64,000 bases of DNA from Candidatus Poribacteria bacterium (GTDB lineage Bacteria; Poribacteria; WGA-4E; PCPOR2b). This document shows positions 46,940 to 64,000 of this stretch, piece after piece. The stretch covers positions 3,680,001 through 3,744,000 of the forward strand of contig OZ244042.1 in the NCBI GenBank assembly GCA_965215015.1, in the 5' to 3' direction. Each line of letters starts with the position of its first letter. The stretch's first letter is position 1. The notes below the pieces were generated by a model. That model was not told the origin of the DNA. It saw nothing but the letters and a program-made list of their open reading frames with translations, and ran no database searches. A program made the translations under genes and the position numbers.

Positions 46940-48862
46940 TTACCACCAACTATACACGGAGGTGGTAAGGATAAGGCTTAGGATCGGCCAGAAGCAACCC
47001 ATCACCGCTTCGCCGAGAACCAATCCCACGAAAAAGGGAATTGCGGCACGATACGCTTTGATGCCACCATGCCTGATTAACAACCACTTCGTAACCATTG
47101 CAATCGCTACAGGGAACCAGATCATATCCGTTGTGCCGGGCGCAAGACCGATAACGTAGCCCGCCGGGTGAAGTGGGCACCAAACAAAGCGCGCCCGCAG
47201 AAACATGATACCGAGGTTCACAAAAAAAGCAAATCCGAGAACGCTCATTGACAACCAATTCGTTGGCTTGGGATTGACCAACCACCCAGATAGATAGTTG
47301 TAAGTTCCTGCACCACCGGCATGAATCTGTTCAGAACCCGCCGCAACCCCTGTCTTGTAAATTGTATATGGGTAAAGGATGAGGCTGGATTCGATACCTA
47401 CAATGCTAGCAATGATCAACACAATAAACATCGTCCGATTTCTGATGCTAGTTCGCTCTGCGAGTTTGAATGACTCAAGTTGATCGGGTATCGGGTGGGT
47501 CCGGAATCCGGCACCGCTGAGCCAGTTCATCAAAGAGAGTATTGTTAAATTTCCCGGTTTTAGGCGGCGCGTCCCGAACATAGCAACCATCAGATATTGG
47601 GGGTTTATGTAGCCTATGGAGTGAATCGGGGGGCCCAACTCCGCACGCATACGCGCCAGTCCGACAACAATTGCGAAGTAAATGCCGATGAAAACAGCGT
47701 AACCCCACAATGACATCCCACCTGCTATGCAGAAGACCATCAACACCAAGAGACAGATACAGACCGTAACAACAGCAGCTCGATAGGAGATTGGCTCATT
47801 GGCCTCATCAACCCGATTTGGACGGATGACGCGAGAGAGAACCTGTACAAAATGCCTCCTGCCTGTCCAACAGGTTACCGCGAGTAAAGCGAACAGGGCA
47901 CCTGTGCCCTGTTCCCCCAAGAATGGGTAACCGGGAATACTCCTGATGCCTGCCATACTGCCAAAGACAAGTTGGGCCTTCCGCATGAGGTAGAAGAACG
48001 TACATGAGAAGGAGAGATCCAAAGGGAGAACAAAAGAGAGACCAATGAGGTACGGGTGGAAATAAAAAGAGGTACTGCCCATGGCATTCCACGGCTTCTG
48101 TGAAAAACTGAAGACGTTTCTGGTGCGGTCATTAATGGGCAGAGAGGGGATGATAGGGAAAAAAAAAGCAATCCCGTTCAGCAGGTCAATGCCGAAGGCG
48201 ATTCCAAAACCGATCCACAGGACACGATTCCTAAAGATGCCCCCGGACTCAGCTGTGATTTCGAGGGGAATTTGGATAATCGGATACGCTAATTTCTCGC
48301 GCTCAACCCACTGTCTTCTGATGAGCGAGGTCAGACAGAGGAAAATGAGCATCAACGAAAAAATGACAATTGACCACGATAGGATAGGCGTCACCCAATA
48401 TCGTACGTAGCCGTCTGTAAAGAAATTGACATTCCCCTCGTAAAAATCGTTGACGGTCTTCGGATCGGATATGACCAACCAATCCGGCAAGTGATGAAAC
48501 AGCAACGCCGCCCAGTCATTTTCAGGAGTCGCAAAGCGGAAGGCGTAGGGCATCAGGCCCATCAGCCGGGGCATCGCGTCGTGTCCTGAGAAGCAGCTTC
48601 CCACCGCAAGCATCGCATAGATAACGAGCAGGTCTTGTTGATTGAGGGCAGCTTGGGGCGAAACCTGACGGACAATTATGTTTAGCCACGTTATTATCAG
48701 GACAGCAAACATAACGTTGACCGACAGCGACACAGTCGTCAGATGCGCCGTATGCCATATCATTTCGACATAGGCGATCCAGTAACTGTTGGCGATGATT
48801 AGCAACACGCCAATCAACACCGCACGCTTTTTGATTGAGATTATCGCGTTTGTATCCTTCAT
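46940..48862 (-). CDS. DUF6785/DUF6784-like polytopic membrane protein (OPT-like transporter)
   Basis: Many membrane helices; QW...EKL.YP..Q.P, R.RAE.G, W.PLHP.GY, PFF.GL.LG motifs. Confidence 0.7.
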   Translation of the reverse strand: MKDTNAIISIKKRAVLIGVLLIIANSYWIAYVEMIWHTAHLTTVSLSVNVMFAVLIITWLNIIVRQVSPQAALNQQDLLVIYAMLAVGSCFSGHDAMPRLMGLMPYAFRFATPENDWAALLFHHLPDWLVISDPKTVNDFYEGNVNFFTDGYVRYWVTPILSWSIVIFSLMLIFLCLTSLIRRQWVEREKLAYPIIQIPLEITAESGGIFRNRVLWIGFGIAFGIDLLNGIAFFFPIIPSLPINDRTRNVFSFSQKPWNAMGSTSFYFHPYLIGLSFVLPLDLSFSCTFFYLMRKAQLVFGSMAGIRSIPGYPFLGEQGTGALFALLAVTCWTGRRHFVQVLSRVIRPNRVDEANEPISYRAAVVTVCICLLVLMVFCIAGGMSLWGYAVFIGIYFAIVVGLARMRAELGPPIHSIGYINPQYLMVAMFGTRRLKPGNLTILSLMNWLSGAGFRTHPIPDQLESFKLAERTSIRNRTMFIVLIIASIVGIESSLILYPYTIYKTGVAAGSEQIHAGGAGTYNYLSGWLVNPKPTNWLSMSVLGFAFFVNLGIMFLRARFVWCPLHPAGYVIGLAPGTTDMIWFPVAIAMVTKWLLIRHGGIKAYRAAIPFFVGLVLGEAVMGCFWPILSLILTTSVYSWW

Positions 48863-48904
48863 GGTAGGAAACAGATAGAAATTTTGGGGAAAATTACAAA
48901 GAAG

Positions 48905-48933
48905 AAAGCCCCACACCAAAAGGCGGGGGCTTT
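48905..48933 (-). terminator. Intrinsic terminator
   Basis: aaagcccccgcc-tttt-ggtgtggggcttt followed by a T-rich tail on the minus strand. Confidence 0.65.
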
Positions 48934-48976: not shown

Positions 48977-49738
48977 TCAACGGGTTTTCAGTGAACCCCA
49001 AGTGGTCGTCAGCTTATCACCCGGCTCAACAACCCGTCCCTTGAGACCAGTCACGAAAGCATTGTCAAATGTAGCAGTGGTAGCCTCTGTGCCTACACCG
49101 ACACGACCTCCTTTGCTACCGTTTATATCCTTTCCCTCAAAGATGAGTTCCTCATCAAGAAACAGTTGGATAAAGAGACCTTGATTCAAAATTTTGATAT
49201 GCAAATCATCTCTTCCTAGCTTGTGTTTTGTCTCAGTCCCTTTTTTAATGTCCGTAATACCTCTAACATCCCGAATGACAAAGGAGGAGTTATTCTCCCA
49301 ACCAATCTCCCACCAAAACTTGATACGGCTTTTTTCATCAGCAAGCCGCCCCTTAACGGGACCATTAAGCGTAAACGACCGGGCGTCGTCTCTGCCGGGA
49401 CCGGGCTGCAAATCATCTTTGATCCGCCAAAAAATGCGAACCCCATTACTGCCCCTTAATTTTCTTGCGGTCACTTCAAAAATATATTCGTTCCACGTAT
49501 CATCCCAGAAATCATCCGAAATGACAGCGATGGTGCGCCCATCCGCCTGGCCTTGTTGGAGTGCTCCGTTCTGAATTTCCCATGCTCCTTGTAAAAACGT
49601 CCATTTTTCTGCGGAACGGTTCGGCTTTGCAAAATTATCCTCAAACAGAATCTGTGCAGCAGCAGGAGAAGCAAGTAGAATGAGTGCAACGAAGCACGCC
49701 CCTACAAAATTACATGGAATTGATAATACTTTCTTCAT
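48977..49738 (-). CDS. Secreted DUF1080/GH16-like beta-sandwich protein with C-terminal TWG motif
   Basis: Signal peptide, ILFEDNF, G.W....G, GG.VG.G, FDN..V, ends VEPGDKLTTTWGSLKTR. Confidence 0.75.
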   Translation of the reverse strand: MKKVLSIPCNFVGACFVALILLASPAAAQILFEDNFAKPNRSAEKWTFLQGAWEIQNGALQQGQADGRTIAVISDDFWDDTWNEYIFEVTARKLRGSNGVRIFWRIKDDLQPGPGRDDARSFTLNGPVKGRLADEKSRIKFWWEIGWENNSSFVIRDVRGITDIKKGTETKHKLGRDDLHIKILNQGLFIQLFLDEELIFEGKDINGSKGGRVGVGTEATTATFDNAFVTGLKGRVVEPGDKLTTTWGSLKTR

Positions 49739-49787
49739 ATCCCTCCTTTCCTAAAGATAAAAGACTATATGCAACAAGATAGATTTA

Positions 49788-50582
49788 TTAACGGGTTTTC
49801 AGCGAACCCCAAGTGGTCGTTATTTTACCACCGGGTTCGACCCCTTGTCCTTTAAGGTCCGTGATAACAAAGTCAGAAAATTCAACCGCTGTCGTATGGG
49901 TGCCCAGAGCAATCCTCCCACCCTTATTGGCACCATTAATCTCCTTGCCTTCCCAGACCAGCTCATCATCGAGAAACATCTTAACAAGTATAGCATCATT
50001 TTCAATTCTGACCTTAGTCTCTTTGTTTTTCGCGAGCTTGTGTTTTGACTCTGTACCTTTTCTGTCTTTGGCAAGTCCATTGACATCTCTTACCAAAACC
50101 GATGTAGTGCCCTCGCGACCGATATCCCACCAGAGCTTAATACGACCTTTGCCTATATCTTCGAGCCGTCCCTTTGCACCGGCATCACCTAAACAGAACG
50201 AATTGTTAAAGCCGTCGCCACACTCTCTGCCGACCTGGTTTTTCATATCATCTCTGATACGCCAGAAGATCAACGCACCATTGTCGCCCCTGAGTTTCTT
50301 TACGGTCACCTCAAAAATATACTGCGTCATCTCTTCAAATTCTTCTGTCCAAGCTGTATCCGACATGTAGGCCATTGAGCGCCCTTGCACTGCACCTTGC
50401 GTCATTTTACCGCCCTGAACTTTCCAATCTCCTACGGCGAACACCCAGTTATTTTTCGATTTCTCTGCGTTTTTGAAGTTATCCTCAAAAAGGATTTTCG
50501 CCGTAGCGGTAGGAGACACTAAGAGACACACCATAACGCTGGAGAATACGGGGGTGAATAGAAATAATAAAACTTTTTTCAT
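49788..50582 (-). CDS. Secreted DUF1080/GH16-like protein with C-terminal TWG motif (paralogue)
   Basis: Start 50582 after AGGAGGG; ILFEDNF; ends VEPGGKITTTWGSLKTR. Confidence 0.75.
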   Translation of the reverse strand: MKKVLLFLFTPVFSSVMVCLLVSPTATAKILFEDNFKNAEKSKNNWVFAVGDWKVQGGKMTQGAVQGRSMAYMSDTAWTEEFEEMTQYIFEVTVKKLRGDNGALIFWRIRDDMKNQVGRECGDGFNNSFCLGDAGAKGRLEDIGKGRIKLWWDIGREGTTSVLVRDVNGLAKDRKGTESKHKLAKNKETKVRIENDAILVKMFLDDELVWEGKEINGANKGGRIALGTHTTAVEFSDFVITDLKGQGVEPGGKITTTWGSLKTR

Positions 50583-50786
50583 TTTAGCTCCCTCCTTATC
50601 TTTAGTTAAAATACAATTTGAACTATTTATAAGAAGCGTTGAGTTATTGTCTTTCAATTTCCCTGGACGTTTAAACCGTTTTTAGTCGGACTTTGTTACA
50701 TTTCGATGTGAAAAGTGCAGTCAAAGTCTGTAATGTAATCGCCTACAGAATCACAGCCAATCTGTATTCAACAAAAGATAAAAATA

Positions 50787-50822
50787 AAGCGTGATGCCCT
50801 GATTTAACAGCGCATCACGCTT
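50787..50822 (-). terminator. Intrinsic terminator
   Basis: aagcgtgatgc...gcatcacgctt stem followed by a T-rich tail on the minus strand. Confidence 0.7.
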
Positions 50823-50840
50823 CATATTTAGACTACGCAA

Positions 50841-51800
50841 TTATAGGCCTTGTTTTGCATTCAGCTTAATATTGCCCCACGTCTGCGAGAGCTTATCCTT
50901 AGGAGTGACAGAGCGCACACCGATGAACTGGAGGTCGCCGTAGATGCAGACACAGTTGTCATTCTCAAAAGATGATGCCCAAGAGATCGAACCTTCTCGA
51001 CTCTCGCCCGCGGCTTCATGATCATTCATTGTTGAGTCAAATCCCACTATGACTCCATCAACGAATTCCTGAGGCTTGATGGTTGATATAGTCATTCCCT
51101 CTTTATAGTTAAGGGCAATTTCCATGATCATGCCATCACCGGTTTGAGTCGCCGCTGTATTTGCCGAACAATCTTCATCAAAGACGTGTACATCACCGAG
51201 AACTGCGTTCTGCCCATGGTTCCACCAGCAGGCAGGTTCGGAGGTTCCGGCACCCGTCCACGGTTTAATCCGCCACCAGTGATCGCCGGGCTGCGGTTTG
51301 CAGCAGTCAACTTGCGCGAGATCCCGGTCATCATTCCCTTTGGGCTGCCTACAAGCGTTATGCTCCCAGTCAAACTCAAGCCACAGCTCGGATGTATTGG
51401 GTGCGGTGGGGCCGCCTTTGTTCTTCGCTTCGCCGCTATTGATATCAGTAGGCAAATTCGCATCCTTGACCACACCGATATAGTAGAGACGCTCTTCGTC
51501 AAAGAGAAATCCGAAATTGTTACTTAAATCATCGGCATCATCAATGGTGCCTCGACTCACTCGGTTTGGTGAGGTTTCCTCAAAAAGGAACCAATCCGGA
51601 ACCCGTTCGACATCCATGTGCATATCAGCCTGCTGATACTCGTCCCAATGCATCTCATACTCTTCATCAACCTTGCCATCAATTTCAGGCGGTTTTTGTG
51701 CGAAGAAGGCTTTCGCTGTGCCGCCCGAATGTGCGAAAACAAGCACTGTAGAAAATAGCATTACTAACGCCATTGTACAGAGAATAGCGTACCTTAACAT
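50841..51800 (-). CDS. Secreted CBM9/DOMON-like protein with C-terminal TWG motif
   Basis: PPEIDG.VD, D.E.LY....V.D, G..MEI, VGFD....D.; Cys-rich; ends VTPKDKLSQTWGNIK... Confidence 0.7.
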   Translation of the reverse strand: MLRYAILCTMALVMLFSTVLVFAHSGGTAKAFFAQKPPEIDGKVDEEYEMHWDEYQQADMHMDVERVPDWFLFEETSPNRVSRGTIDDADDLSNNFGFLFDEERLYYIGVVKDANLPTDINSGEAKNKGGPTAPNTSELWLEFDWEHNACRQPKGNDDRDLAQVDCCKPQPGDHWWRIKPWTGAGTSEPACWWNHGQNAVLGDVHVFDEDCSANTAATQTGDGMIMEIALNYKEGMTISTIKPQEFVDGVIVGFDSTMNDHEAAGESREGSISWASSFENDNCVCIYGDLQFIGVRSVTPKDKLSQTWGNIKLNAKQGL

Positions 51801-52040
51801 GGTGTTATCTCCTCCAATTTTAGAGTAAATTGATAAAACGATGGTTAAGTCCCATCCAAAATTGTGCAATTTATTGCACAGTTAAACAACTTAGTTTTAA
51901 TTTTTCAGACGTGATACAACCGAATTGATACTGTATCTCGTCTGCCGACGCACTACTAAAGAAATATTCATAGCGCGCTCACATTTTCAAAATCTGTAAC
52001 AGCCGAGCTAGACGCTCCCTCTATTAGGAATATCTATGGT

Positions 52041-52853
52041 CTACTGCCCAGCTTTCAGTTCACCCCAAACCGTTGCTAATTTACCTTTTGCTTCAACAGA
52101 AAAGGGATTACCTTCGGGTGTCGTAACAAACACATCATCTACCACAATTTTGCCATTAACGGTTCCAAAACCGATACGTCCTTCGCCTTGAATATTTACA
52201 TCTTTTTTCCCTAAGGCTTCAAGGTCAACAATCGGATCACCATAACTCCCCGCAGCCACCGCCCCTGCTTTATCGGTCAGGTACAGTTTATAAAGCTTTG
52301 CAGCATTTTCAATTTTCACATAATAATCTGTCCCAGCGTTGATCTTTGTTTTAGTTTCGGTGATTTCAAACGGCTTGATAATAGTCCGTATATCACGTTG
52401 GACGACTGCACCTCCACCCTTTTGGAACCACCAATAGATCACATGACGACGACCACTCTCTTGCATCAGTTTGGGCAGACTTCCAGCGGGGGAAAAGTTA
52501 CCCCCCTGCGAACCGTCGCTGTGAAACCGCCAGAAAATAGCTGGCTCAGAACCAGCCGAAGTGGAGATTTTTGCATAGAACCAATAATCAACCCACTCTG
52601 GATCCCAATGTGCATCAGTCACCATGATTAGGCTTTTATCAGCTGATGTATTTCTTAATTCTCCGCCTTGAATGGTCCACTTTCCAAGGGCGACATGCCA
52701 TTTTCCTGAGCCATCTAACTTACCGCTCTTGAAATTATCCTCAAACAGGATTTCTATGGCTTGAACGAAACTCGGTGCGATGAGCGAGACGCTCACCAAA
52801 ACTGCGATTGCCGCAAACAGAAATAGTTTGGGCAAGCTGTTAGTTCTATACAT
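52041..52853 (-). CDS. Secreted DUF1080/GH16-like protein with C-terminal WG motif
   Basis: Signal peptide, ILFEDNF, GRIGFG, DDVFV, ends VEAKGKLATVWGELKAGQ. Confidence 0.75.
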   Translation of the reverse strand: MYRTNSLPKLFLFAAIAVLVSVSLIAPSFVQAIEILFEDNFKSGKLDGSGKWHVALGKWTIQGGELRNTSADKSLIMVTDAHWDPEWVDYWFYAKISTSAGSEPAIFWRFHSDGSQGGNFSPAGSLPKLMQESGRRHVIYWWFQKGGGAVVQRDIRTIIKPFEITETKTKINAGTDYYVKIENAAKLYKLYLTDKAGAVAAGSYGDPIVDLEALGKKDVNIQGEGRIGFGTVNGKIVVDDVFVTTPEGNPFSVEAKGKLATVWGELKAGQ

Positions 52854-52930
52854 GGCTAACTCTCCTTTCAAGTTTCGATTATGACAAACAGATGACAAAC
52901 AAATGTCAATTACGATACAAAGATAATGCT

Positions 52931-55348: not shown

Positions 55349-55764
55349 AATCACATACCTCCTTTTGGGTTAAGGTAAAAACTAAAAACAGTGTACAGTT
55401 CAATAATCGAAAAAAATAGGGCCTATTAAGCTGCCTAACGGTTGTGATTCACATTTTAACATATTACGCCAGCCTAATGCAAGCTATAAAACAGAATTTA
55501 AGAGAAATTAATGAAAATTTGTACAAAACGGTAGCCCAGATCTGAACCAAAAGATAGGGCACTTAACAGGGGGAAAACCCCGTCTCTATAAGAAAATAGA
55601 TAGAAACCGACGCAAGAGGCGGGGATTGGAATGCCCTCCTACTACACAAACTACACAAAACAGATAGAACGTAGAGAAAAATTTAGTATTACGTTTTACG
55701 ATATTAATCTTAAAGAGTATCCTGTTATAACCCTCACTTTTGTAAATTAGATCCGTTTTGCGTC

Positions 55765-55795
55765 TTGACAAGATTCTACGACTGTGATAGAATCT
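55765..55795 (+). promoter_or_regulatory. Sigma70 promoter of the giant gene with overlapping inverted repeat
   Basis: TTGACA-N17-TAGAAT with a TGn extension; agattcta-N9-tagaatct inverted repeat at 55771-55795. Confidence 0.8.
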
Positions 55796-55861
55796 GACAA
55801 ATTTAAACAAAATAGAACTATGTGCCGGTTAGCTTAATTAAAAAATTTCGGAGGGATCACC

Positions 55862-58800
55862 ATGATTATCAAGAGATATTATTACATCAGTTTATGGCTT
55901 TGTATCTTTGCCCTACTATCTCCGCATGTGGACGCCGCGGTTGAAGAGCAGCTGTCAGTTGGGCTTTCGGAGGTTGCGGTCAAAATCGTTGACAAAGTCG
56001 ATATCGGTCGAATGCGAAAAGACATCGCTCGACTCTCTAATCTTTCCACCCGTGTCACCGGCTACGATGAAGCCGCCTCAGGCAGCAAATACATCTTCGA
56101 TCAATTTGTCGATATTGGCTTACAAAACGTCGAGAGCCGCGAGTTTCCTGTTTCCGTGCCGATTGACCACGGTGATGGGAAGGTAGAAATTCTCTCCGAA
56201 GATAAAACGCTCCTCAAGACTTATCGAATCTGGTCCATTTGGCCCAACCTGGTTCGCACCTCCTTCCTCCCCAACGGTATCTCCCATCTGGTAGTCGCAG
56301 GTGAAAACCTTGATAGGATTGCCAAATCCTACCAAGTTGACCCACAAACCATTTTAGCTGACCCGCACAACCAATACCTTCGTGACCAAGCAACCGATGG
56401 CAGCGATAACGATGATGATGGTGAAGTCGACGAACCGGGCGAGTTGGTGCTGGTCGAAGGCAACTCACTCTTTATTCCCACCGGCGGATTGACCGCCCCC
56501 ATCTTTTATGGCGGAAGTGGCGAGCTCGCCTCGTTCAACGGTAAAGATATCGGAGGCTTCTGGCACAAAGTTCAGCCTAACGATACGCTAGAAGACCTCG
56601 CCCATCAATTTCGCATCGGCGTCGGTAGTATCACCGACGACGTGCTTAACGGGCACCTCCAAAAAACGCAAGATGGTATCGACAACAACGAAGACGGACA
56701 GATTGACGAATACGGTGAGATTCCCCCACTCACTGAAATCTTACAGTGGGATACCGACGGTATTGACAACGATGGGGATGAGTTCGTAGACGAACAGCCC
56801 GGCGATGCAACTGACGGCATCGATAACAACAACAACGGACAAATTGACGAAGAAGGTGAATTTGTCGCCGCCTCTGAATCCAGCATCTTTATTCCCCAAG
56901 GCAGCGTTGCCCTTATTGACTTCAACTCTAGCACCAAATGGATTAACGCCGCAATGCTTGGTGCAAAAGCCGTGCTCTTCATCGAGCCAGAGACCACTAT
57001 CCGCGGCGAGGCTGAAAACAAATTTCTGACGGTCCCCGCCAACATCCCTCGATTCTGGATTGCTAAGAAAGATGCCGACGAACTCTTGGCTATGCTCGGT
57101 GAAGGAGAAACGGGTGCACAATCACCAATAACAGAAACTGACTCGCAACCGTCCGGGTTGATTGAGCCAGGAGGGGTGGAGCGCAGCCCTAGGTATCCGA
57201 AACTTTATGCGCGTCTTACCAGTACCATCACTTGGGAACAGCGGATGGGGCAGAACATTCGGGGCTTCCTTGAGGGGGGCGACCCAACCCTGAAAGACGA
57301 ATTGGTCGTTATCACCGGCTATTACGACTCAATGTCTGTCGTTCCCGCAATGGCACCGGGAGCCGACCCCACCGGCGGCATCGCCACGTTGTTGGAACTT
57401 GCCCGCATCTTTAGCGACGAGGAATTTCGGCCGGGCCGCTCTCTCCTTTTTGTAGCGACAGATGCCCACTTCCAAGGGCTCGGCGGGATGCGAGCATTTA
57501 TGGAAGGGATTGGTCAAGATATCGTCGGCCGCGAAGCGGATTCTCCCGGCACACCGACGATGCGCGGGCTGCGGCGCGGTTTAAGCACCGACCTCTTTGA
57601 GTTTGAGGAATTAGGACGCAAGCTATTGCTGTCAATCGATCGGAATGTGCTGGTAGACCTGCCCCCTAACTTCTTCCATGATGTCCACGAACTCAAAGCA
57701 GATGTTGATTCCCTAGCAACAACCCTCGCTGATTTGGCGACGACAAAGGGCAAGATTAACAGCTTGCGTAACGCCCAACGTGAGGCAAAAGAGAAGGAAA
57801 AGAAGAAACTTGAAACAACCAAGAAGCGAGAGAAACAAGGATTTACCGAAGAGGAAAAATCTCGGCTAGAAGTTAATCTAGCAAAGTTCAAGAAGGATGC
57901 ACTGCAGACCACCCAATTCATTCGTTCAATGTTTCATCGTACCCTTAAATTGCGTACCCAAGCATTGGACGAGTGCCGTCAAACCCAGCGCGAACTGATT
58001 GAACAGGTTGCCTTACCCATGGCTCGGTTGGATGTCTGGGCAATTGAAAAACTCATCGCAGATCTGGCAGCGAAACGAATTAAAGGGAAATATGCCCAAA
58101 CGCCAGACAGCAGCTATCTCGTGCCGAAGGAAGGGGAGGACGGACAGTATTACTTGCCCGCACCAAACGACCTATCATCGTATTTAGAGGCAGATGTTCA
58201 GCGGCTGTCCGAAGCATTGCAGGACTGGGAATTTGAAGATCCACGGAAATTCACCCTCCAGTATGCCCAAGAGAAGTTGTTAGACCGTCATCTCGACTTT
58301 AAGGGGTTGGAACGAATTAAGTCCGCCCGGAGGGTTGTGAACCGCGCTGAAAAATCTCTAGAAGCCTACATAATCGAGGAACGACAAATCCTTGAACGGA
58401 CGCTCGCAAACATTCCCGCTGGCAGCGACGCGGCGGATAGCATCAAAAACGCTATCACCCAGTTAGGCGCTAAACCCGACCATATCCCCAGCGGCTTTGT
58501 TGATGAGCTAAAACTCTTCCTCAACGCAGCGACCCTCAAGCAGTTCGAGATTGTCCAGAACCAACTCCATCAGAAGTTAGAGATGATGGACCCAACAACG
58601 GGAACAACAACCTCACGAGAGTTGGATCAAATTCTAATTGACGACCTGACCAGAGATAAACAGAGCATTCTCGAAACCGCGATGCGTAACGCTCGCCTCG
58701 AACGCTATCGGATTGAATCCCTCCTCGCACGCCATGGGTCGTTGAACCGATCCTACCTCGCCGAAGAAGAACTCGTCCTCCGGCACTATCTCCCTGAAGA

Positions 58801-61800
58801 TGCAGCAGACCGGGCGATGGACGTCCGAGAGCAAATCTTCGGTCAGCTGGAAGAACAACAGCTACTCGAGATAGTGAAGAAGCGAGCCAAGAACGATATC
58901 GTCGAACTCCAGAATCTTCTCAACGTTCTTGACCGCCTCGATCGGGACCCGGACGAGGAGACCAAAATCCTCCTGCGTGATAACCTGCTGACGATGCGAA
59001 ACGCTCGATTCCGTAATCTACAGAAACGGGTGGAAAAAATCGCACGCATCAGCGAAGCCGAATACACACGGAAGATACGCTCCATTGAACAAGCGATTGC
59101 ACTCCAAGACATCTTTAACCGTTACTACACCTCTCTCTTTATTTCTATTGACCTCTCCAGCCAGAACGACCAATTTGGCGTATTCAACAAAGGTTGGTTC
59201 TACGACCAACAACCCGAATTCGTCCTCCGCCGCGAGTTTGCTTCTATCGGAAATAAACTTGCCGAATACGCGCAGGGCGCCGATTTCGGCGAGCGTATCC
59301 AGAAACTCTGGACCTTCACCGACGACCAGATCCGCCAAGCGGTGATGAACACCCAGTGGACAGTCGCAGCCGGCATCGATCCGAAAAAAGCCATCGAAGG
59401 CAAGAGCCTAGAAAGCTTAGTCACCGAACATTATGCAACGTTGGTCGGGCTATCCGGGGTCTCTCGATTGATGAAGATGCAATTTGAACAGATGAAAAGC
59501 CAAGGCGAACCGTCCGAGGACATGCTCAAGGATATGGACTATATCCGCAAGGAGGTCGAGCGATTCATCCGAAACGATATCCGAGAGGCACGGAAGAACC
59601 GCAAGAATAAAGTGCGCCTGCTCAATCGACTAGATGCCATGCTTGCCCTGCGCTATGAAGACCCGTCCGAATTCACCCAAGAAGAAGTCGATGATATCAA
59701 GGCACTCATTAATATTGCCGGTTTCGGCGGTGAAACCAACTTCGTCAACGCAATCTCCGCCAGTGGCGGTAAGATCTGGAAGACTTACATCCCCGGCAAG
59801 ATTGCCTTCGATAGCGAAGTTGCCACCCTCACCGGGTTTACCGGAATCGCTTTTGCCACCATAGACGATGCGCGCGTGCTGACCGATACCCCGCTCGATA
59901 CTATTGACCGGATGGACTTGACCAAAGATGGTGCCTTGCATAAACAAGCGAAGACCCTTGCCGCTGTTCTCATCCAAGCAATGCGCGACCCGAAGATGCC
60001 CACCGCAGCGCGGGTCGGGAATTTCTACTGCAACCTATTTGGTGATGTCGTCGAGTATGACGCCCGCGAGAGCGCACTCCCAAACAAGCCAGTCGAGTAC
60101 CCCATCCTCGCCTTGCGGAGTCGGCACAAAACTATGATGGGAGTACGCGGCGACCTCATCGCAATGGGAGACAATAAAGGGAACTTTGAGGTCGCAGGGC
60201 TTGCGATGGAGGGACGCGCAACCATCCGTCTCAAAGGAACGCAGGAGGTGGAAGCATACATCCTCCACCCCGATTCGGGCGATATTGTCTACGCACCGGA
60301 TCTCGGCAATTTCGGCGCAAAACTTTTACCGAACCTGATACCGATCAACACCCACCGTCGTGGATGCCGGATTGTGGTTTTCCCCTGCGTGTCCACCACC
60401 ATTTACGATCTTGTAGATCAGCGATACCTACGGACCCTTCGTGAGCTGGAAGTTTTTGATGCCGCAAGCGATAGCCCACCCGAAAAGTATGGCGTGTCGA
60501 AGCCGTGGCAGCAGGAAGGCATCTCGGCGACCGAACCCATTGCGCTCGTCTATTCTGAACCCAACAGCCGTATCAAGGTGGGGATGGCGTATGGACAGAT
60601 TGGCAAACGGTTGCTGCTGATTAAAGCCAGCAAAAGTGGAACGAAGAACCCCACACTCTATACCGGAGAAGGGTTTGTCGTCCGTGAAAACGGGAGCATT
60701 CGGGTAACCCCATATGTTGTCGTCCGCGATATGTGGTGGCTCGATGAAAACCGAGCCAGTTTGTATAAACGGTTCGGCATCAGCAGCGACCGACTCGATC
60801 AACTTCACCAATTTGCCAATGAACATCTGAATCAGGCGGAGGCCGCCCTCATTCAAAGAGACTATCAGCAAGCACTCAAGCTCGCCCGCGCCGCCTGGGG
60901 ATACGAATCTCGCGCATATCCCGATGTCAAGAAAACAGGCAATGACGTCGTCAACGGCGTGATGTTTTATCTCGCGCTCCTGATCCCGTTCGCTTACTTC
61001 ATGGAGCGACTGCTGTTCGCCTTCCCAACCGTCCAAAAGCAGATTATCGGAACAGCCGCGATTTTCCTCGTCGTATTTTTCTTCTTGGCGCAGGTGCACC
61101 CCGCATTTCAGATTACCACAACGCCGGTTATCATCCTGATTGCATTCATCGTCCTCGCATTGACAGCAATCGTAATCAGTATCATCGTCCGGAAGTTTGA
61201 AGAACAGATAGAAAAAATTAAGCAGGAAGGCTCGCAGGTGTACAAAGCGGATGTGGGACGACTGTCTGCCTCCGCTGCCGCTTTTAGTCTCGGTATTTCC
61301 AATATGCGTAAGCGGAAGGGGCGCACCATCCTCACCTGTAGCACGCTGGTCATTCTCACATTTACGGTCATCTCCTTTACATCGGTGCGGACCTTTATGC
61401 ACCCCAACAGCACCAACCTACCGTCTGTAACCCCCCGATACACCGGGATGCTCATCCGAGATCAGTATTGGAACCCTCTTGAGGAACCCGTTGTCAACTC
61501 CCTTACAAACGATTTGCGGAAAACACAAATCCCTGAAAAGGATTTACGGCTACTGTTGAAGAAGCGGCGGGGACAGCAGGGTACGCCTACCAATCAGATT
61601 GACGAGGACGTTGATGCAATGTTAGACCAACTACGGCAGCAGGGGGCATTAATTGAACTCGGTGAAGAATCTGTATTGCGAGTGCACAACATCGTCGCAC
61701 CACGAGCGTGGTATCAGTCCGCAGGTACAGGGGATCAGTCATTTGTACAGCTAGAACGCACCGCCAACCCACGAGATCCCGTACCGCCTGTCAATACCGC

Positions 61801-63337
61801 CACCGGTCAGCCAAAGACCTACTCCGCTACCATGCTGGTCGGGATGAGTCAAGATGAACCCGGTGTCACCGGGATTGACCGCTACCTCCAATACGGGCGA
61901 TGGTATCACCCCGACGATGAAGCGGAGTGGCCCACACAATGGCCCTACGCTTGCGTGTTGCCCAAAGGCATGGCGGATCTGCTCGGTATCACCGAAGCCG
62001 ATATGGGCAAAGCGACCGTCTCCGTATACGGCGCGGATTTCACCGTAACCGGTGTCCTCGGTATCGGCTTCAAAGACCTACAGGATAACGATGGCGAAGA
62101 ACTAACACCCGTTGATTACCAACTGATGCAGCAGCAGGAAGCGCGCGGCGGCGGCGCACAGGGACAGAACCAAGCCATGGAGGGAGAGCTGGAAAAATAT
62201 ATCCATCTCCCGCCTGACGCTGTAGCTATCCTGCCGTACGATGTGGTGATGAATCAGGGCGGAACCTTACGCTCGGTCGCTGTCAACATGGAAGCACAAC
62301 CCGGCGATCCGAAAATTTTCAGTGCAGCAGATAAACTTGATCTGATTATGGCACCCCTGATGAACCGAATCGCACTCGACTTCTTTGTTGGAAAAGATCG
62401 GGATACCTATCTATACAGTTCAATCGGAATGACCTCTTTCTCCGGGATGGGCAACCTGTTCATACCAATCTTAATTGCGTCGCTGATTGTTCTGAACACA
62501 ATGCTCGGTGCGGTCTATGAACGTGTCCGTGAAATCAGCATCTACAGCTCCGTCGGACTTGCCCCTGTGCATATCGCTTTTCTGTTCCTCGCAGAGGCGT
62601 GTGTGTACGCAATTGTCGGTGCAGTGCTCGGCTACCTGCTTGGTCAGGCTGTCGCAACCATCCTCGTCAATTTCGGATTACTCGCCGGACTGACCCTTAA
62701 CTACTCGTCAATGTCAACAGTGGTAGCAACCATTATTGTGATGATTGTTGTGGTTGGGAGCACGCTGTATCCTGCAATTAAAGCCAGTCGCATGGCGGTG
62801 CCCGACATTGAACGGAAATGGCAGCTGCCGGAACCTGAAGGCGATGAGTGGCACTTCGATCTTCCCTTTACAGTGTTGGCAGAAGAATCGCTCGGCTTGA
62901 ATATCTTTATGCGCGATTACTTTGAGGCGCACGCCGACGAATCCGCAAGCGACTTTTATACGGATCAGGTCGCCTTCGGTCGAACATCTGTGGAAGTTGA
63001 AGGAACGGAAGACGAAGCCTACAACATCAGCATGATGGTCTGGCTCGCACCCTACGACCTCGGGGTCAGCCAATCCATTCGGCTTGTCACCTCACCGGTC
63101 GGCGGTGAAGAGGAAGAGCTGTATAAAATCCACCTCGATGTCCATCGTGAGAGCGGGGAGATTGCTTCATGGAAGCGTGTCAACCGCCGTTTCTTGAACC
63201 TGGTCCGAAAACAGTTGCTAATCTGGCGGACCTTCAGTGCCGATGTCCGTGGTGAATTCCATGAGCGTGGACGGCAAGAGAGCGAGACGGAAACGACCCC
63301 GGGCGTAGGCAATCTGGTCGCCCAACCGGCAGATTAA
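55862..63337 (+). CDS. Giant (2491 aa) membrane-anchored protein: M28-like fold, PA-like region, 2 LysM, acidic DGxDN repeats, helical inserts, FtsX-like permease
   Basis: Signal peptide; LysM-like HLVVAGENLDRIA and HKVQPNDTLEDLA; VVITGYYDS..PGAD; RRKGRTILT-like segment and VYERVREISIYSSVGL.P (FtsX); two membrane-helix clusters. Confidence 0.85.
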   Translation: MIIKRYYYISLWLCIFALLSPHVDAAVEEQLSVGLSEVAVKIVDKVDIGRMRKDIARLSNLSTRVTGYDEAASGSKYIFDQFVDIGLQNVESREFPVSVPIDHGDGKVEILSEDKTLLKTYRIWSIWPNLVRTSFLPNGISHLVVAGENLDRIAKSYQVDPQTILADPHNQYLRDQATDGSDNDDDGEVDEPGELVLVEGNSLFIPTGGLTAPIFYGGSGELASFNGKDIGGFWHKVQPNDTLEDLAHQFRIGVGSITDDVLNGHLQKTQDGIDNNEDGQIDEYGEIPPLTEILQWDTDGIDNDGDEFVDEQPGDATDGIDNNNNGQIDEEGEFVAASESSIFIPQGSVALIDFNSSTKWINAAMLGAKAVLFIEPETTIRGEAENKFLTVPANIPRFWIAKKDADELLAMLGEGETGAQSPITETDSQPSGLIEPGGVERSPRYPKLYARLTSTITWEQRMGQNIRGFLEGGDPTLKDELVVITGYYDSMSVVPAMAPGADPTGGIATLLELARIFSDEEFRPGRSLLFVATDAHFQGLGGMRAFMEGIGQDIVGREADSPGTPTMRGLRRGLSTDLFEFEELGRKLLLSIDRNVLVDLPPNFFHDVHELKADVDSLATTLADLATTKGKINSLRNAQREAKEKEKKKLETTKKREKQGFTEEEKSRLEVNLAKFKKDALQTTQFIRSMFHRTLKLRTQALDECRQTQRELIEQVALPMARLDVWAIEKLIADLAAKRIKGKYAQTPDSSYLVPKEGEDGQYYLPAPNDLSSYLEADVQRLSEALQDWEFEDPRKFTLQYAQEKLLDRHLDFKGLERIKSARRVVNRAEKSLEAYIIEERQILERTLANIPAGSDAADSIKNAITQLGAKPDHIPSGFVDELKLFLNAATLKQFEIVQNQLHQKLEMMDPTTGTTTSRELDQILIDDLTRDKQSILETAMRNARLERYRIESLLARHGSLNRSYLAEEELVLRHYLPEDAADRAMDVREQIFGQLEEQQLLEIVKKRAKNDIVELQNLLNVLDRLDRDPDEETKILLRDNLLTMRNARFRNLQKRVEKIARISEAEYTRKIRSIEQAIALQDIFNRYYTSLFISIDLSSQNDQFGVFNKGWFYDQQPEFVLRREFASIGNKLAEYAQGADFGERIQKLWTFTDDQIRQAVMNTQWTVAAGIDPKKAIEGKSLESLVTEHYATLVGLSGVSRLMKMQFEQMKSQGEPSEDMLKDMDYIRKEVERFIRNDIREARKNRKNKVRLLNRLDAMLALRYEDPSEFTQEEVDDIKALINIAGFGGETNFVNAISASGGKIWKTYIPGKIAFDSEVATLTGFTGIAFATIDDARVLTDTPLDTIDRMDLTKDGALHKQAKTLAAVLIQAMRDPKMPTAARVGNFYCNLFGDVVEYDARESALPNKPVEYPILALRSRHKTMMGVRGDLIAMGDNKGNFEVAGLAMEGRATIRLKGTQEVEAYILHPDSGDIVYAPDLGNFGAKLLPNLIPINTHRRGCRIVVFPCVSTTIYDLVDQRYLRTLRELEVFDAASDSPPEKYGVSKPWQQEGISATEPIALVYSEPNSRIKVGMAYGQIGKRLLLIKASKSGTKNPTLYTGEGFVVRENGSIRVTPYVVVRDMWWLDENRASLYKRFGISSDRLDQLHQFANEHLNQAEAALIQRDYQQALKLARAAWGYESRAYPDVKKTGNDVVNGVMFYLALLIPFAYFMERLLFAFPTVQKQIIGTAAIFLVVFFFLAQVHPAFQITTTPVIILIAFIVLALTAIVISIIVRKFEEQIEKIKQEGSQVYKADVGRLSASAAAFSLGISNMRKRKGRTILTCSTLVILTFTVISFTSVRTFMHPNSTNLPSVTPRYTGMLIRDQYWNPLEEPVVNSLTNDLRKTQIPEKDLRLLLKKRRGQQGTPTNQIDEDVDAMLDQLRQQGALIELGEESVLRVHNIVAPRAWYQSAGTGDQSFVQLERTANPRDPVPPVNTATGQPKTYSATMLVGMSQDEPGVTGIDRYLQYGRWYHPDDEAEWPTQWPYACVLPKGMADLLGITEADMGKATVSVYGADFTVTGVLGIGFKDLQDNDGEELTPVDYQLMQQQEARGGGAQGQNQAMEGELEKYIHLPPDAVAILPYDVVMNQGGTLRSVAVNMEAQPGDPKIFSAADKLDLIMAPLMNRIALDFFVGKDRDTYLYSSIGMTSFSGMGNLFIPILIASLIVLNTMLGAVYERVREISIYSSVGLAPVHIAFLFLAEACVYAIVGAVLGYLLGQAVATILVNFGLLAGLTLNYSSMSTVVATIIVMIVVVGSTLYPAIKASRMAVPDIERKWQLPEPEGDEWHFDLPFTVLAEESLGLNIFMRDYFEAHADESASDFYTDQVAFGRTSVEVEGTEDEAYNISMMVWLAPYDLGVSQSIRLVTSPVGGEEEELYKIHLDVHRESGEIASWKRVNRRFLNLVRKQLLIWRTFSADVRGEFHERGRQESETETTPGVGNLVAQPAD

Positions 63338-63554
63338 AGCGTGATGCGTTAGAAGTACATTGCGCATTGCGCTCCTCCGGAGCGAATCGGCTGGTGTTAT
63401 GCCATTGATCTGTGGGTGGGGTAAGGACACCCGAACCACGAGGCCCATAAAAAAATGCAAAACCCTCTTTTTACATAAGCCAACTCAAAAAGCATTCCTT
63501 TCCTCTAATCACGCATTACCTTTAACGTATCACGCAAAGGAAACAACAAAATCA

Positions 63555-63722
63555 ATGGAAAAATTAGCGTATATCCTAATCTTTATCGGTTCAATCTTTT
63601 GGGTATTTTCGATCTTCTTTATGGGAGCCCGATGGCAGCCACAGCTGCTCGCTGCCACAATCCTAATTGTTGGAATTATTATCGCCCACGTTTGGGAAGA
63701 GCTTTTCCGAGAAAAAAAATGA
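63555..63722 (+). CDS. Small two-helix membrane protein (55 aa)
   Basis: MEKLAYILIFIGSIFWVF...LAATILIVGIII; AAGGA upstream. Confidence 0.55.
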   Translation: MEKLAYILIFIGSIFWVFSIFFMGARWQPQLLAATILIVGIIIAHVWEELFREKK

Positions 63723-63850
63723 CCGATGGACACAGTGAAACAACGCACGATTGAGCTCATTTATTCATAGGTGCAAAAGTTCATTAACGAACCAATCAAC
63801 CAATGAGCTAACTTACGTTTCACGTTTCGTGTCCTGAAAGGAGCATAAAT

Positions 63851-64000
63851 TTGGCAAGAGAAAGGGTGTCACAAGCAGAAGAGTGGCAAGCTTGGGCACA
63901 ACGTTATGATGTTGAGGGCGGTTTAAGAACCTTTGAATCCGGGTTAACCCTGAAAGTCTTTCTAGGGGCGGTCTTCATTGGACTATTGATGATGCCGGGG
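63851..64000 (+). CDS. OPT-like peptide transporter, N-terminal part (runs off the window)
   Basis: TTG start after AAGGAG; MARE...FESGLTLKVFLGAVFIGLLMMPG. Family call rests on only 50 residues. Confidence 0.55.
   Translation, partial: MARERVSQAEEWQAWAQRYDVEGGLRTFESGLTLKVFLGAVFIGLLMMPG

Follow-up and report, generated by a model that had tools for sequence, protein, structure and literature searches.

A giant FtsX-family protein with an M28-like head, encoded beside an OPT-fold permease in Poribacteria: a candidate ATP-driven uptake machine

Results

Organization of the locus

The window, a stretch of 64,000 nt, carried near its end a single giant gene of 2491 codons, with an ATG start and zero internal stops (Table 1). 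The host is a sponge symbiont. An HTH_3 regulator gene and an M78/IrrE-like gene diverged from it; the HTH gene adjoined the giant gene also in loci L017, L019 and L030, and the M78 gene in L017. A promoter-like site upstream gave 11/12 matches. Overall, the promoter scan showed no enrichment (13 sites found versus 19.0 ± 4.2 in shuffles), and this site is therefore a candidate only.

The order of the operon was giant gene, small ORF, OPT-fold permease, 309-aa protein (p309), PqqD-like protein and LolD/MacB-type ATPase. The small ORF encoded two transmembrane (TM) helices (aa 69–87 and 94–112), as first annotated. Only its last ~55 aa, from ~63555, were conserved, with tblastn matches to aa ~60–120 in 9/13 Poribacteria loci; no family was found for it.

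The first-pass annotation had seen no cognate ATPase. This held within the window, but an ATPase gene ended the operon about 7 kb downstream. Conservation of the neighborhood, including the DNA after 64000, was confirmed: the giant, OPT-fold, p309, PqqD and ABC genes were kept in 13/13 main-copy Poribacteria loci with downstream DNA present (7 families).

Table 1. Positions of the features (window numbering, or L003 numbering where marked)
Feature	Position	Strand	Remarks
DUF6785+DUF6784 membrane protein	46940..48919	-	E 1.1e-155 and 1e-26
Four secreted lectin-like genes	48977..52898	-	ending KLxTTWGxLK; upstream of and co-directional with DUF6785 gene
M78/IrrE-like gene	54093-54986	-	divergent from giant gene
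HTH_3 regulator	55010-55354	-	divergent from giant gene
Promoter-like site, TTGACA-17-TAGAAT with TG	55765..55793 (L003 766-794)	+	~70 nt 5' of start codon
Giant gene, 2491 aa	55862..63337	+	pseudo-M28/PA head, LysM, helical inserts, MacB/FtsX permease
aa 1-27, signal peptide or N-terminal anchor	55862..55942	+	hydrophobic segment aa 9-27
aa 28-140, first segment of M28-like fold	55943..56281	+	alignment with short homologues
aa 141-346, Poribacteria-specific insert	56282..56899	+	two LysM-like modules, four EF-hand-like DGxDN loops
aa 347-556, PA-like domain and N-half of M28	56900..57529	+	YYD, PGAD-P, HF
aa 557-1085, charged helical insert	57530..59116	+	enlarged in Poribacteria; composition
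aa 1086-1130, central M28 strand	59117..59251	+	invariant D1097 (motif LDLSS)
aa 1131-1290, second insert	59252..59731	+	alignment A2
aa 1291-1400, C-half of M28 fold	59732..60061	+	D1336, R1338, D1342, D1346
aa 1401-1695, beta-rich domain and helical stalk	60062..60946	+	homologue model
aa 1696-1775, three extra TM helices	60947..61186	+	family-specific; hydrophobicity
aa 1776-2311, MacB-type module	61187..62794	+	TM1, periplasmic core domain, TM2-4 = FtsX
aa 2312-2491, conserved cytoplasmic C-terminal domain	62795..63334	+	alignment A2
Small ORF	63360-63722	+	two hydrophobic helices
OPT/Yellow-Stripe-fold permease, 665 aa	63851..64000, on to L003 10849	+	window holds start only
Second permease copy	L003 11550-13544		79% identical
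PqqD-like gene	L003 14975-15394		overlaps ATPase ORF as listed
ATPase, LolD/MacB-type	L003 15357-16220		end of operon

Authenticity of the giant gene

The odd length and mosaic architecture of the ORF would suit an assembly chimera, or neighboring genes fused by sequencing error. Against this, a single open frame was found in 99/101 Poribacteria genomes searched, in 18/18 genera, with a stop-free length of 2340–2570 aa. Contigs from runs X1 and X3 of other studies spanned 55700–64000 collinearly with 0 differences, and independent contigs covering the gene were free of indels in it. More than 400 full-length relatives existed, and the family comprised 1326 cluster representatives (E ≤ 1e-30). 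With all three lines in agreement, a chimera was refuted; such an artifact has practically no chance of being the explanation. Together with the profile searches below, these results upheld the ORF and the parts first described in it.

The M28/PA head

The M28 Pfam model matched aa 465–547 (33.3 bits; cut-off 21.3), covering only the first 77 of its 193 positions. The remainder of the fold fell beyond the helical insert in alignment A2 (16 rows). The PA model gave 17.3 bits, under its cut-off. The predicted ectodomain of a short homologue (pLDDT 92.3) superposed over residues 35–644 on the Aeromonas aminopeptidase (1rtq_A; Z 29.1, rmsd 2.6 Å, 269/291 residues).

Alignment to 1amp/2anp and residue counts confirmed that the head lacks an intact canonical two-zinc site: HxD reads YYD, and EE reads HF. 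The third change noted earlier, GADD to GADP, was ambiguous, since D502 fell on the bridging Asp of 2ek8 in the family-profile alignment (E or D in 51/62 relatives). The profile paired 'lvDtplDt' with 'YHTPNDT' of 2ek8, with Asp in place of the zinc His.

In alignment A3 (62 rows of relatives), D1336 was kept in 62/62 and D1342 in 55/62. D1097 was present in 60/62 of these and in 16/16 rows of A2; its position and motif suggested the equivalent of the fourth zinc ligand, a residue pairing made by no alignment tool. The altered pocket residues as a set were kept in 51–62 of 62 relatives. The earlier description of the head as 'non-catalytic' was not borne out. This conservation would fit a remodeled working site of another kind.

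N-terminus and inserts

The N-terminus had one hydrophobic segment (aa 9–27) followed by VDA/AVEE, and by eye a signal peptide would be cleaved after VDA. LysM matched two stretches (25.5 bits; cut-off 20.9). The best, aa 142–166, covered only profile positions 1–25 of 43, and by eye acidic loops interrupted each module ahead of its last strand. The four DGxDN repeats (aa 179, 271, 299 and 318) gave a weak alignment to the EF-hand loops found in calmodulin-like domains (3khe_A, E 0.0015). The insert holding both was missing in 14/16 rows of A2, namely all the non-Poribacteria rows.

The charged helical insert contained 30–38% charged residues and 1–9% Gly+Pro per 100-aa block. Short homologues had ~150 aa at this site, modeled as four long helices (344–495). 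The second insert was shared by Poribacteria and, in part, by P0244 and P0248, and was missing from the remaining rows of A2. The helical inserts total ~700 aa.

The union of FtsX with a degenerate metallopeptidase fold, LysM and long charged helices in a single polypeptide suggested a regulator of cell-wall remodeling of the FtsEX-EnvC/PcsB/CwlO kind, in which the motor would drive a coiled coil linked to a degenerate peptidase, with LysM as the means of binding peptidoglycan. FtsEX systems use just this kind of partner. On the other hand, mapping against the short homologues (about 1450–1750 aa), which lacked LysM and the long helical inserts, showed that only Poribacteria have LysM and the bulk of the helical sequence as insertions, and these cannot define the core function. 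The core family does without them beside an OPT-fold gene in 9/10 other-phylum loci, and division or wall genes were absent from the operon. We regard a wall-remodeling role as very improbable; anchoring to the wall, proposed in the first-pass annotation, is not a core property of the family.

The membrane part

In the homologue model, strands (657–860) and long helices (884–986) formed a beta-rich domain and stalk. The three extra TM helices were kept in all 16 rows of A2, and further TM segments lay at aa 1822–1840 and then 2200–2302. FtsX was matched in Pfam at E 3e-12; MacB_PCD gave 21.5 bits, under the cut-off of 27. The family profile matched MacB 5lil over the periplasmic and TM domains (E 9.6e-17), and also YtrF, LolF and LolC. 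No Pfam family was found for the C-terminal domain, in which W2394, L-A-P, D2399, G-V-S, W2437 and R2449-K-Q were invariant in A2.

The OPT-fold permease and its linkage

The ORF starting at 63851, first taken for the start of an OPT-like transporter, indeed had an OPT/Yellow-Stripe fold. Its model (pLDDT 81.4) aligned with barley Yellow Stripe 1, HvYS1 (7wsr_A), over 551/600 residues (Z 20.6; next best Z 6.3), with a TM-score of 0.61/0.67 at 12–15% identity, and the 7wst_A entry was matched at E 1.4e-9. No Pfam model matched it, even at E 10, and Pfam OPT (PF03169) matched 4/69 members of its family.

A short homologue lay directly 5' of an OPT-fold gene in 9/10 non-Poribacteria loci (Armatimonadota, Abditibacterium, Planctomycetota/Brocadiia and WS1). 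An ATPase 69–70% identical was upstream in 3 of these, and solute-binding-protein-like genes flanked the module in loci of WS1 and Armatimonadia.

The DUF6785 gene reported 7 kb upstream was present, but on the opposite strand and in its own operon with the lectin-like genes. As one of 28 full-length paralogues, against 1 giant gene in this genome, it may be near by chance. Four other genomes had 1–3 motor genes and 9–20 DUF6785 genes. DUF6785 genes also abutted further motor-gene copies (L022, L105 and L108; G103 and G104), and in P0353 (Latescibacterota) a single protein fused the FtsX part to DUF6785/DUF6784. These findings, with the adjacency in 13/13 and 9/10 loci, supported the predicted functional coupling to OPT-like permeases. 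The presumed kinship of DUF6785 to OPT rests on protein-language-model scores (0.86–0.88), since profile–profile comparison was not significant (E 0.23) and Pfam OPT was found in 0/22 paralogues.

Among 84 ORFs scanned around 23 DUF6785 paralogues were sulfatases (3 loci), PhyH dioxygenases (6), GFO/IDH/MocA oxidoreductases (3 loci), an arabinofuranosidase and a TonB-dependent receptor, a catabolic rather than biosynthetic setting.

The ATPase and the PqqD-like protein

The ATPase was of LolD/MacB/DevA/FtsE type, with its best matches to LolD, DevA, a darobactin exporter and MacB. These matches, and the PqqD-like protein, would suit export or envelope biogenesis: the OPT-fold protein would move lipid-linked or peptide cargo outward, and the MacB-type motor would extract or expel it at the membrane's outer face, as in LolCDE and MacAB. 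To our knowledge, every type VII ABC system characterized so far works outward or at the outer leaflet, which also counts for export. On the other hand, no membrane-fusion or outer-membrane channel gene was found among 9 downstream ORFs, or among 26 ORFs in 4 other-phylum loci. HvYS1, the partner's only relative of solved structure, is the barley iron-phytosiderophore importer, and the DUF6785 paralogues do not sit in biosynthetic loci. We consider export unlikely, though worth keeping in mind.

The PqqD match (Pfam 53 bits), weak matches to chaperones of lasso and other ribosomal peptides, and the overlap of the PqqD-like and ATPase ORFs suggested that a leader peptide might be presented to the ABC machine for ribosomal-peptide export or immunity. 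Against this, no radical-SAM, cyclase, protease or precursor-like gene was found among the ORFs scanned, and the 10 other-phylum loci gave no PqqD homologue in tblastn. The system is also universal and single-copy in the phylum (99/101 genomes), unlike typical natural-product clusters. This role appears quite improbable.

Discussion

We favor, at about even odds (roughly 0.5), an ATP-driven nutrient-uptake machine composed of the MacB/FtsX motor, the M28-like head and the OPT-fold permease. The giant protein would form the membrane component of an ABC system of type VII (MacB/LolCDE/FtsEX-like), energized by the ATPase of its operon. As with FtsX-family permeases in general, its own helices most likely pass no substrate, and ATP hydrolysis would serve to move its periplasmic parts, including the head with its remodeled but strongly conserved pocket. 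In a physical complex with this motor, the OPT-fold permease would provide the membrane path for oligomeric nutrients. The head, with the LysM and Ca-loop additions in Poribacteria, may bind the cargo or a protein that carries it, or hold either of them in position, and the motor may gate or load the OPT-fold channel. Capture of peptide or glycan, as first proposed, is conceivable here. The 309-aa and PqqD-like proteins may be cytoplasmic adaptors or regulators.

Uptake is favored by the catabolic neighbors of the DUF6785 paralogues, by the solute-binding-protein-like genes beside the module and by the match of the permease to an importer. Several points count against it. We know of no type VII ABC system that imports anything. 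The catabolic setting belongs to the DUF6785 paralogues and not to the giant operon, and a PqqD-like peptide-binding protein would equally fit peptide export. The operon's own neighbors carry no substrate hint.

The giant gene is an enlarged version of a widespread, unstudied membrane machine. If the uptake reading is true, this would be an undescribed ATP-driven nutrient-uptake machine.

With the type VII ABC systems (MacB, LolCDE, FtsEX, YtrEF and LolF), the giant protein shares the four-helix FtsX region, the periplasmic core between TM1 and TM2 and a separate LolD/MacB-type ATPase. It differs in ~1700 aa of added periplasmic sequence (M28/PA head, beta-rich domain and inserts), three extra TM helices, a 180-aa cytoplasmic tail and the genomic pairing with an OPT-fold permease (13/13 Poribacteria and 9/10 other-phylum loci). 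Partner genes for a membrane-fusion protein, TolC, a lipoprotein carrier or a hydrolase were not seen in the ORFs scanned.

The head shares its fold with PA-domain M28 aminopeptidases (2ek8, E 6e-18; 1rtq_A; GCPII, Z 23.8). It also resembles non-enzymatic relatives, the transferrin receptor (Z 25.6) and GPI transamidase (7w72_A, Z 19.5), and the family profile matched nicalin (E 6.4e-9); in these three the zinc ligands are likewise replaced. Unlike in all these relatives, helical inserts of 150 to 700 aa divide the fold, which is covalently joined to an ABC permease, and the replaced residues form a conserved set of their own (Y, D, E/D, H, D, D).

The 665-aa partner has the complete fold of the OPT/YSL family (PF03169; HvYS1 7wsr/7wst). 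Known OPT/YSL proteins are ion-coupled carriers working alone, whereas this one is encoded with an ABC-type permease, and a sister family is fused to one.

ECF-type ABC importers have a shared energizing module, with one motor serving many scattered membrane components. The giant system has no sequence or fold relation to them, but its ratio of 1 giant gene to 28 DUF6785 genes is similar, and by this analogy we hypothesize that the motor may be shared among the DUF6785 components.

Integrity and architecture of the giant gene

A word-indexed search with the giant protein recovered 436 relatives at E ≤ 0.001. The best 120 of these 436 were 2375–2731 aa long, and the named ones all belonged to Candidatus Poribacteria. 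The gene was found in 99 of 101 sampled Poribacteria genomes, covering 18 of 18 genera and 8 families; the two genomes without a match were 95–96% complete. The listed full-length matches were stop-free open frames of 2340–2570 aa.

Contigs from two sequencing runs (X1 and X3), both of which may be close to the source of the window DNA, covered 55700–64000 with zero differences. Contigs of a sponge metagenome from another study (X8) gave piecewise cover at 95–99% identity, with indels outside the giant ORF only. The first-pass annotation had considered that the ORF might be an assembly chimera; this was ruled out by the stop-free frames across the phylum and the collinear contigs. A candidate promoter-like site lies about 70 nt upstream of the start codon.

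The permease part was recognized by Pfam as FtsX (PF02687) at aa 2200–2311, with 47.1 bits against a cut-off of 25.5. MacB_PCD at aa 1974–2090 scored 21.5 bits with the single sequence, under its cut-off of 27. The family profile aligned with residues 270–459 and 471–655 of MacB (5lil) at E 9.6e-17, placing a MacB-like periplasmic core domain between TM1 and TM2. A hydropathy scan showed an N-terminal hydrophobic segment (aa 9–27), three helices at 1696–1775, one at 1822–1840, and the FtsX helices at 2200–2302. From this pattern, about 1670 aa and the MacB-like core domain are predicted to lie outside the membrane, and the linker and a 180-aa tail inside.

LysM (PF01476) scored 25.5 bits (cut-off 20.9) in two stretches, the better of which spans only profile positions 1–25 of 43, because acidic loops break each module. 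The four DGxDN acidic repeats (aa 179, 271, 299 and 318) aligned weakly with the EF-hand loops of calmodulin-like domains (E 0.0015). A phmmer search of the PDB with aa 130–350 returned EF-hand proteins only and no LysM chain. Residues 601–1100 are 30–38% charged, with Gly and Pro scarce.

Positions of the features discussed. L003 is the locus that includes DNA past the window end; L129 and L130 are other loci; G000:C1 is the contig of this genome, on which the window is 3680001–3744000.
Feature	Position	Strand	Details
DUF6785/DUF6784 gene	window 46940–48919	−	659-aa protein
Lectin-like genes	window 48977–52898	−	KLxTTWGxIK tails
GC-rich intergenic array	window 53218–53929		7 copies of ~59-nt unit, spacing ~43–121 nt
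HTH_3/M78 (IrrE-like) pair	window 54093–55354	−	divergent from giant gene
Giant ORF	window 55862–63337	+	7476 nt, 2491 aa, single open frame
Spacer, small ORF to OPT-fold gene	window 63767–63830		contains ~60-nt recurring stretch
OPT-fold gene and its duplicate, DUF805 gene between	L003 8852–13544 (window 63851 onward)		665 aa; copies 79% identical
ABC ATPase gene	L003 15357–16220		ABC_tran 118 bits (Pfam)
Small FtsX-only gene, then ABC ATPase paralogue	G000:C1:3148787–3150207 (L130 7787–9207)		FtsX-only protein 226 aa (G000:C1:3148787–3149467)
Alpha-2-macroglobulin gene, bacterial	G000:C1:4395440–4401187 (L129 441–6188)		1915 aa; directly 5′ of a DUF6785 paralogue
P0353 (fusion protein) domains	MacB_PCD 975–1083; FtsX 1190–1301; DUF6785 1483–1983; DUF6784 2018–2110		2120 aa

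A remodelled M28-like head

Pfam matched positions 1–77 of the 193 in Peptidase_M28 at aa 465–547 of the giant protein (33.3 bits); a PA domain at aa 345–408 stayed under its cut-off. The head was modelled from the first 1000 residues of a short Armatimonadia homologue, using 62 sequences (pLDDT 92.3, pTM 0.89). Model residues 35–644 superposed on Aeromonas aminopeptidase (1rtq_A) with Z 29.1 and rmsd 2.6 Å over 269 of 291 residues. The model also superposed on PA-domain aminopeptidases, the transferrin receptor, GCPII and a GPI-transamidase chain, and nicalin was matched at the sequence level by the family profile (E 6.4e-9).

The Pfam match to the N-terminal half and the homologue model together showed the M28 alpha/beta fold to be present in the family. 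It is complete but split by a four-helix insert at model residues 344–495, and is followed by a beta-rich domain (657–860; aa ~1401–1640 of the giant protein) and a long helical stalk.

The two-zinc site of the Aeromonas enzyme consists of His, Asp, Glu, Asp and His, with a catalytic Glu. In the alignments, with residues counted in 62 relatives, this site is lost. The first His is Tyr in the giant protein (Y in 50 relatives, H in 4), and the catalytic Glu is His536 (H in 60 of 62). The ligand Glu is Phe, and Glu is absent from the six commonest residues at that position, which account for 57 of the 62. The last His is Asp1342 (D in 55). The first-pass reading of a substituted zinc site was thereby supported.

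D502 may preserve the bridging Asp (E or D in 51 of 62), an assignment made uncertain by a gap that two alignments place differently. D1097 (D in 60 of 62) is probably the fourth, Asp ligand, judging from its motif and position. D489, D1336 and R1338 are kept in 60–62 of the 62 relatives. Since the pocket is so strongly constrained, we prefer to call it remodelled rather than dead.

The operon and its ATPase

Across the window end and into the DNA beyond it, the giant gene is followed by a small ORF with two hydrophobic helices, the 665-aa gene, a DUF805 gene, a second 665-aa copy, p309 (a 309-aa protein), a PqqD-like gene and an ABC ATPase gene. The duplication of the 665-aa gene is a feature of this genus, the other Poribacteria loci examined having one copy. 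A stretch of about 60 nt in the spacer before the first copy recurs at 80–93% identity in at least four other places in the genome, and is probably a dispersed short repeat.

In NCBIfam, the ATPase matched best to LolD (1.5e-68), YbbA, DevA, a darobactin exporter, MacB and FtsE, with the LolD, YbbA, DevA and MacB scores all under their equivalog cut-offs. By these profile matches, the protein belongs to the ATPase group of FtsX-type permeases.

Conservation of the neighbourhood, including the sequence past position 64000, was assessed in 15 loci from across the phylum, of which 13 represented the main copy with downstream DNA. In all 13, the 665-aa gene, p309, the PqqD-like gene and the ATPase gene lie 3′ of the giant gene (with one ATPase gene truncated where its locus stops), and nine also hold the small ORF. 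Of the other two loci, one reaches a contig end and one carries a second giant paralogue, followed by a DUF6785 gene instead of the 665-aa gene. The giant permease thus has a cognate ATPase of the LolD/MacB/FtsE group in its operon, and the earlier statement that none is visible holds for the window only.

The PqqD-like protein has a PqqD domain of 53 bits (Pfam). For p309, Pfam and NCBIfam gave no family, a protein atlas gave only unnamed clusters from Poribacteria, Gemmatimonadota and Armatimonadota, and the alignment showed no conserved Cys/His set. The divergent HTH_3/M78 pair possibly regulates the operon. The position of the HTH gene beside the giant gene was kept in three of the Poribacteria loci with sufficient upstream sequence.

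The ATPase group and the PqqD-like protein bear on export or envelope biogenesis, the main rival to the uptake function favoured below. All known type VII systems act outward, and the PqqD-like protein is of a peptide-binding type. Unlike the MacAB-TolC efflux pump, which has an adjoining membrane-fusion adaptor and outer-membrane channel, the giant gene has neither an HlyD-like adaptor nor such a channel in the 19 ORFs scanned with Pfam (9 downstream and 10 upstream). The PqqD domain is shared with PqqD/RiPP systems, whereas a peptide-modifying enzyme to partner it was not found among the ORFs scanned around the giant gene. We regard export as unlikely, while keeping it in consideration.

The OPT-fold partner and its relation to DUF6785

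The 665-aa protein was modelled with AlphaFold using 69 sequences (pLDDT 81.4, pTM 0.81). Foldseek matched the model to barley Yellow Stripe 1 (7wst_A) at E 1.4e-9, with probability 1.00 and TM-scores of 0.61/0.67; the next-best match was at E 0.02. An independent aligner gave Z 20.6 with 7wsr_A over 551 of 600 residues, and Z 6.3 with the next chain. The protein has the OPT/YSL fold, with barley Yellow Stripe 1 as the sole match.

Pfam OPT (PF03169) matched 4 of 69 relatives (best E 5.3e-9). The window's own protein matched no Pfam family at E ≤ 10, and the family profile found no PDB chain at E ≤ 1. With the fold matched by the model, the first-pass description of the protein starting at 63851 as OPT-like is right.

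For DUF6785, sequence comparisons did not establish a relation to OPT. The upstream 659-aa protein matched both DUF6785 (PF20581, 519.5 bits) and DUF6784 (PF20580, 93.5 bits), as did all 22 paralogues scanned, and none of the 22 matched Pfam OPT. Comparison of the OPT-fold and DUF6785 alignments by hhalign gave E 0.23 and probability 0.26, which does not establish homology; the alignment was collinear across 534 columns with a common ERLPFP/ERLxYP motif. BLASTP between the two gave E 0.013. In a protein-language-model search, DUF6785 clusters appeared near the OPT-fold protein with scores of 0.86–0.88, which in that method count as a lead only.

DUF6785 is also associated with the permease family. 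P0353, a cluster representative, is a natural fusion of the two, and records in its cluster, from Latescibacterota, carry the name 'DUF6785 family protein'. DUF6785 genes also adjoin additional M28-FtsX copies in genomes of WS1 and Armatimonadota.

This genome has 28 full-length DUF6785 genes by tblastn (31 HMM matches), together with one giant gene, two 665-aa genes, one p309 gene and one PqqD-like gene. All 41 Poribacteria genomes sampled had DUF6785 matches, from 7 to at least 28 per genome (28 being the scoring cap), making it one of the largest membrane-protein families in the phylum; 14 control genomes had none. Four module-carrying genomes of other phyla had 9–20 DUF6785 matches and 1–3 M28-FtsX genes.

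The neighbours of DUF6785 were scanned in 84 of 194 ORFs around 23 of the 28 paralogues, taking the nearest 1–3 ORFs on each side and a few more at three loci (L117, L118 and L120). None of the 84 carried an FtsX or ABC_tran domain. Many neighbours were catabolic, among them sulfatases (3 loci), PhyH dioxygenases (6), GFO/IDH/MocA oxidoreductases (3 loci), sulfatase-maturing enzymes (2) and xylose-isomerase-like barrels (2). Types found only once included an arabinofuranosidase, a BNR protein, a phosphodiester glycosidase and a TonB-dependent receptor encoded directly upstream. One paralogue is directly preceded by a gene for a bacterial alpha-2-macroglobulin.

Short homologues outside Poribacteria

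Relatives of the 665-aa protein were found at 41–46% identity, one Armatimonadetes record being named 'peptide transporter'. A one-genome-per-species scan with the alignment of these relatives yielded 78 loci, 10 of which came from Armatimonadota, Abditibacterium, Planctomycetota/Brocadiia, Zipacnadia and WS1. A giant homologue lies directly 5′ of the 665-aa-type gene in nine of the ten; the tenth locus starts at the permease gene.

In three of the ten, a small FtsX-only gene and an ATPase gene (product 69–70% identical to the Poribacteria one) lie just upstream. A DUF6785 gene is upstream in two, p309 is within 5 kb in four, and genes with a pilin-type N-terminus and an SBP_bac_10 domain come next in three.

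The homologues measure about 1500–1780 aa in the six loci holding the entire gene, and align only to giant residues ~42–147, 347–556 and ~1290–2480. A full HMMER scan with giant residues 1292–2491 gave 1326 cluster representatives at E ≤ 1e-30, most of the listed ones being 1450–1750 aa long. Names recovered for some included Latescibacterota, Gemmatimonadota, Zixibacteria and Thermodesulfobacteriota, and no archaeal member was among the 20 representatives whose names were looked up.

The inserts were mapped with a 16-row alignment of the giant protein and short homologues, as the first-pass annotation had proposed. The Poribacteria additions are aa 141–346 (with the acidic loops and the two LysM modules), most of aa 557–1085 (a helical region of about 150 aa in the short forms), aa 1131–1290, and a small insert near aa 1880–1935. 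LysM and the long helical insert are absent from all 14 non-Poribacteria rows.

This bears on wall remodelling of the FtsEX-EnvC kind. On its own, the protein of the window would suit such a role. The family does not, since LysM and the long helices were added in one lineage only. A coiled-coil hydrolase or activator partner of the FtsEX-EnvC/PcsB type was not a constant feature of the family in this alignment.

This genome also has, at a separate place, a small FtsX-only gene followed by an ATPase paralogue gene. The 226-aa product is 36–43% identical to that of the small FtsX gene 5′ of the ATPase and M28-FtsX genes in Armatimonadia loci, and the ATPase paralogue is 61% identical to the Armatimonadia ATPase. 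Together they may supply, from an unlinked site, the other half of a heterodimeric permease.

Tail-tagged lectin-like proteins and intergenic repeats

About 19 small secreted lectin-like proteins of 233–365 aa (Laminin_G_3, DUF1080-like or CBM9-like) share a C-terminal tail, KLxTTWGxIK followed by 1–10 residues, of which we know no description. Their genes occur in the window and at 15 other places in the genome. The motif matched 20 ORF tails against about 4 expected, and one doubtful match was dropped. For 12 of the 19 genes (5 of 12 clusters), the distance to a DUF6785 gene is no more than 12 kb, a range that takes in only 9% of the genome (binomial P ~0.003). Sorting or docking is a possible role of the tail.

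The array unit between these genes and the HTH_3/M78 pair contains the palindrome CCCCCCC-GCTTGC-GGGGGGG and looks REP- or MITE-like. Rfam and tRNA searches of the intergenic stretch 52800–55900 gave no match.

Function of the module

Type VII ABC permeases with a PA/M28-fold head make up a large family that has no name and is genomically locked to OPT-fold membrane proteins; the giant gene represents this family in Poribacteria. We put the probability that the module takes up oligomeric nutrients at about one half. Uptake is the likeliest function because of the importer relatives of the OPT fold, the catabolic setting of DUF6785 and the binding-protein-like genes beside the module elsewhere.

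If it works like MacB, LolCDE and FtsEX, the FtsX part would use ATP hydrolysis to drive motion outside the membrane instead of forming a channel, and the OPT-fold partner would be the obvious channel candidate. The LysM and helical additions of Poribacteria may give the head a longer reach and a tether to peptidoglycan or GlcNAc-containing glycans.

A broader version of uptake, to which we give little credence, makes the single M28-FtsX/ATPase module a shared motor for all DUF6785 permeases and not for its operon partner alone. The lectin-like proteins would then be soluble receptors whose tails dock with the PA/M28 head; in related proteins, this fold holds peptide termini or protein ligands.

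Comparison with known systems

Open-access papers and bioRxiv yielded nothing on the M28-FtsX family, despite its more than 1000 sequence clusters, and no paper on DUF6785, DUF6784, PF20581 or PF20580. The accessible portions of the open-access literature on Poribacteria and FtsX held nothing related. Among the matches listed for FtsX, M28, OPT and mechanotransmission, the portions available concerned known FtsEX and MacB systems only. The available part of a paper on Fervidibacter sacchari makes no more than brief mention of M28 peptidases and an OPT transporter.

If the uptake reading is correct, a mechanical ABC motor is joined to a secondary-carrier fold, a transporter architecture absent from textbooks. 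Its carriers would be bacteria of poorly cultured phyla: Poribacteria, Armatimonadota, Planctomycetota, Latescibacterota, Gemmatimonadota, Zixibacteria and WS1. In Poribacteria, given its copy number and its sulfatase, glycosidase and oxidoreductase loci, DUF6785 may then be how these sponge symbionts chiefly feed on polymers of the host and of seawater. It would be the first type VII ABC system in import; we know of no other. The head would be a bacterial counterpart to the pseudo-peptidase heads of eukaryotic nicalin, the GPI-transamidase subunit and the transferrin receptor.

As a type VII ABC system, the module has no known precedent for its partner or its head. Were it also a motor shared among DUF6785 permeases, ABC-powered importers based on an OPT-type channel would form a new class, resembling the ECF importers in their shared energizing module.
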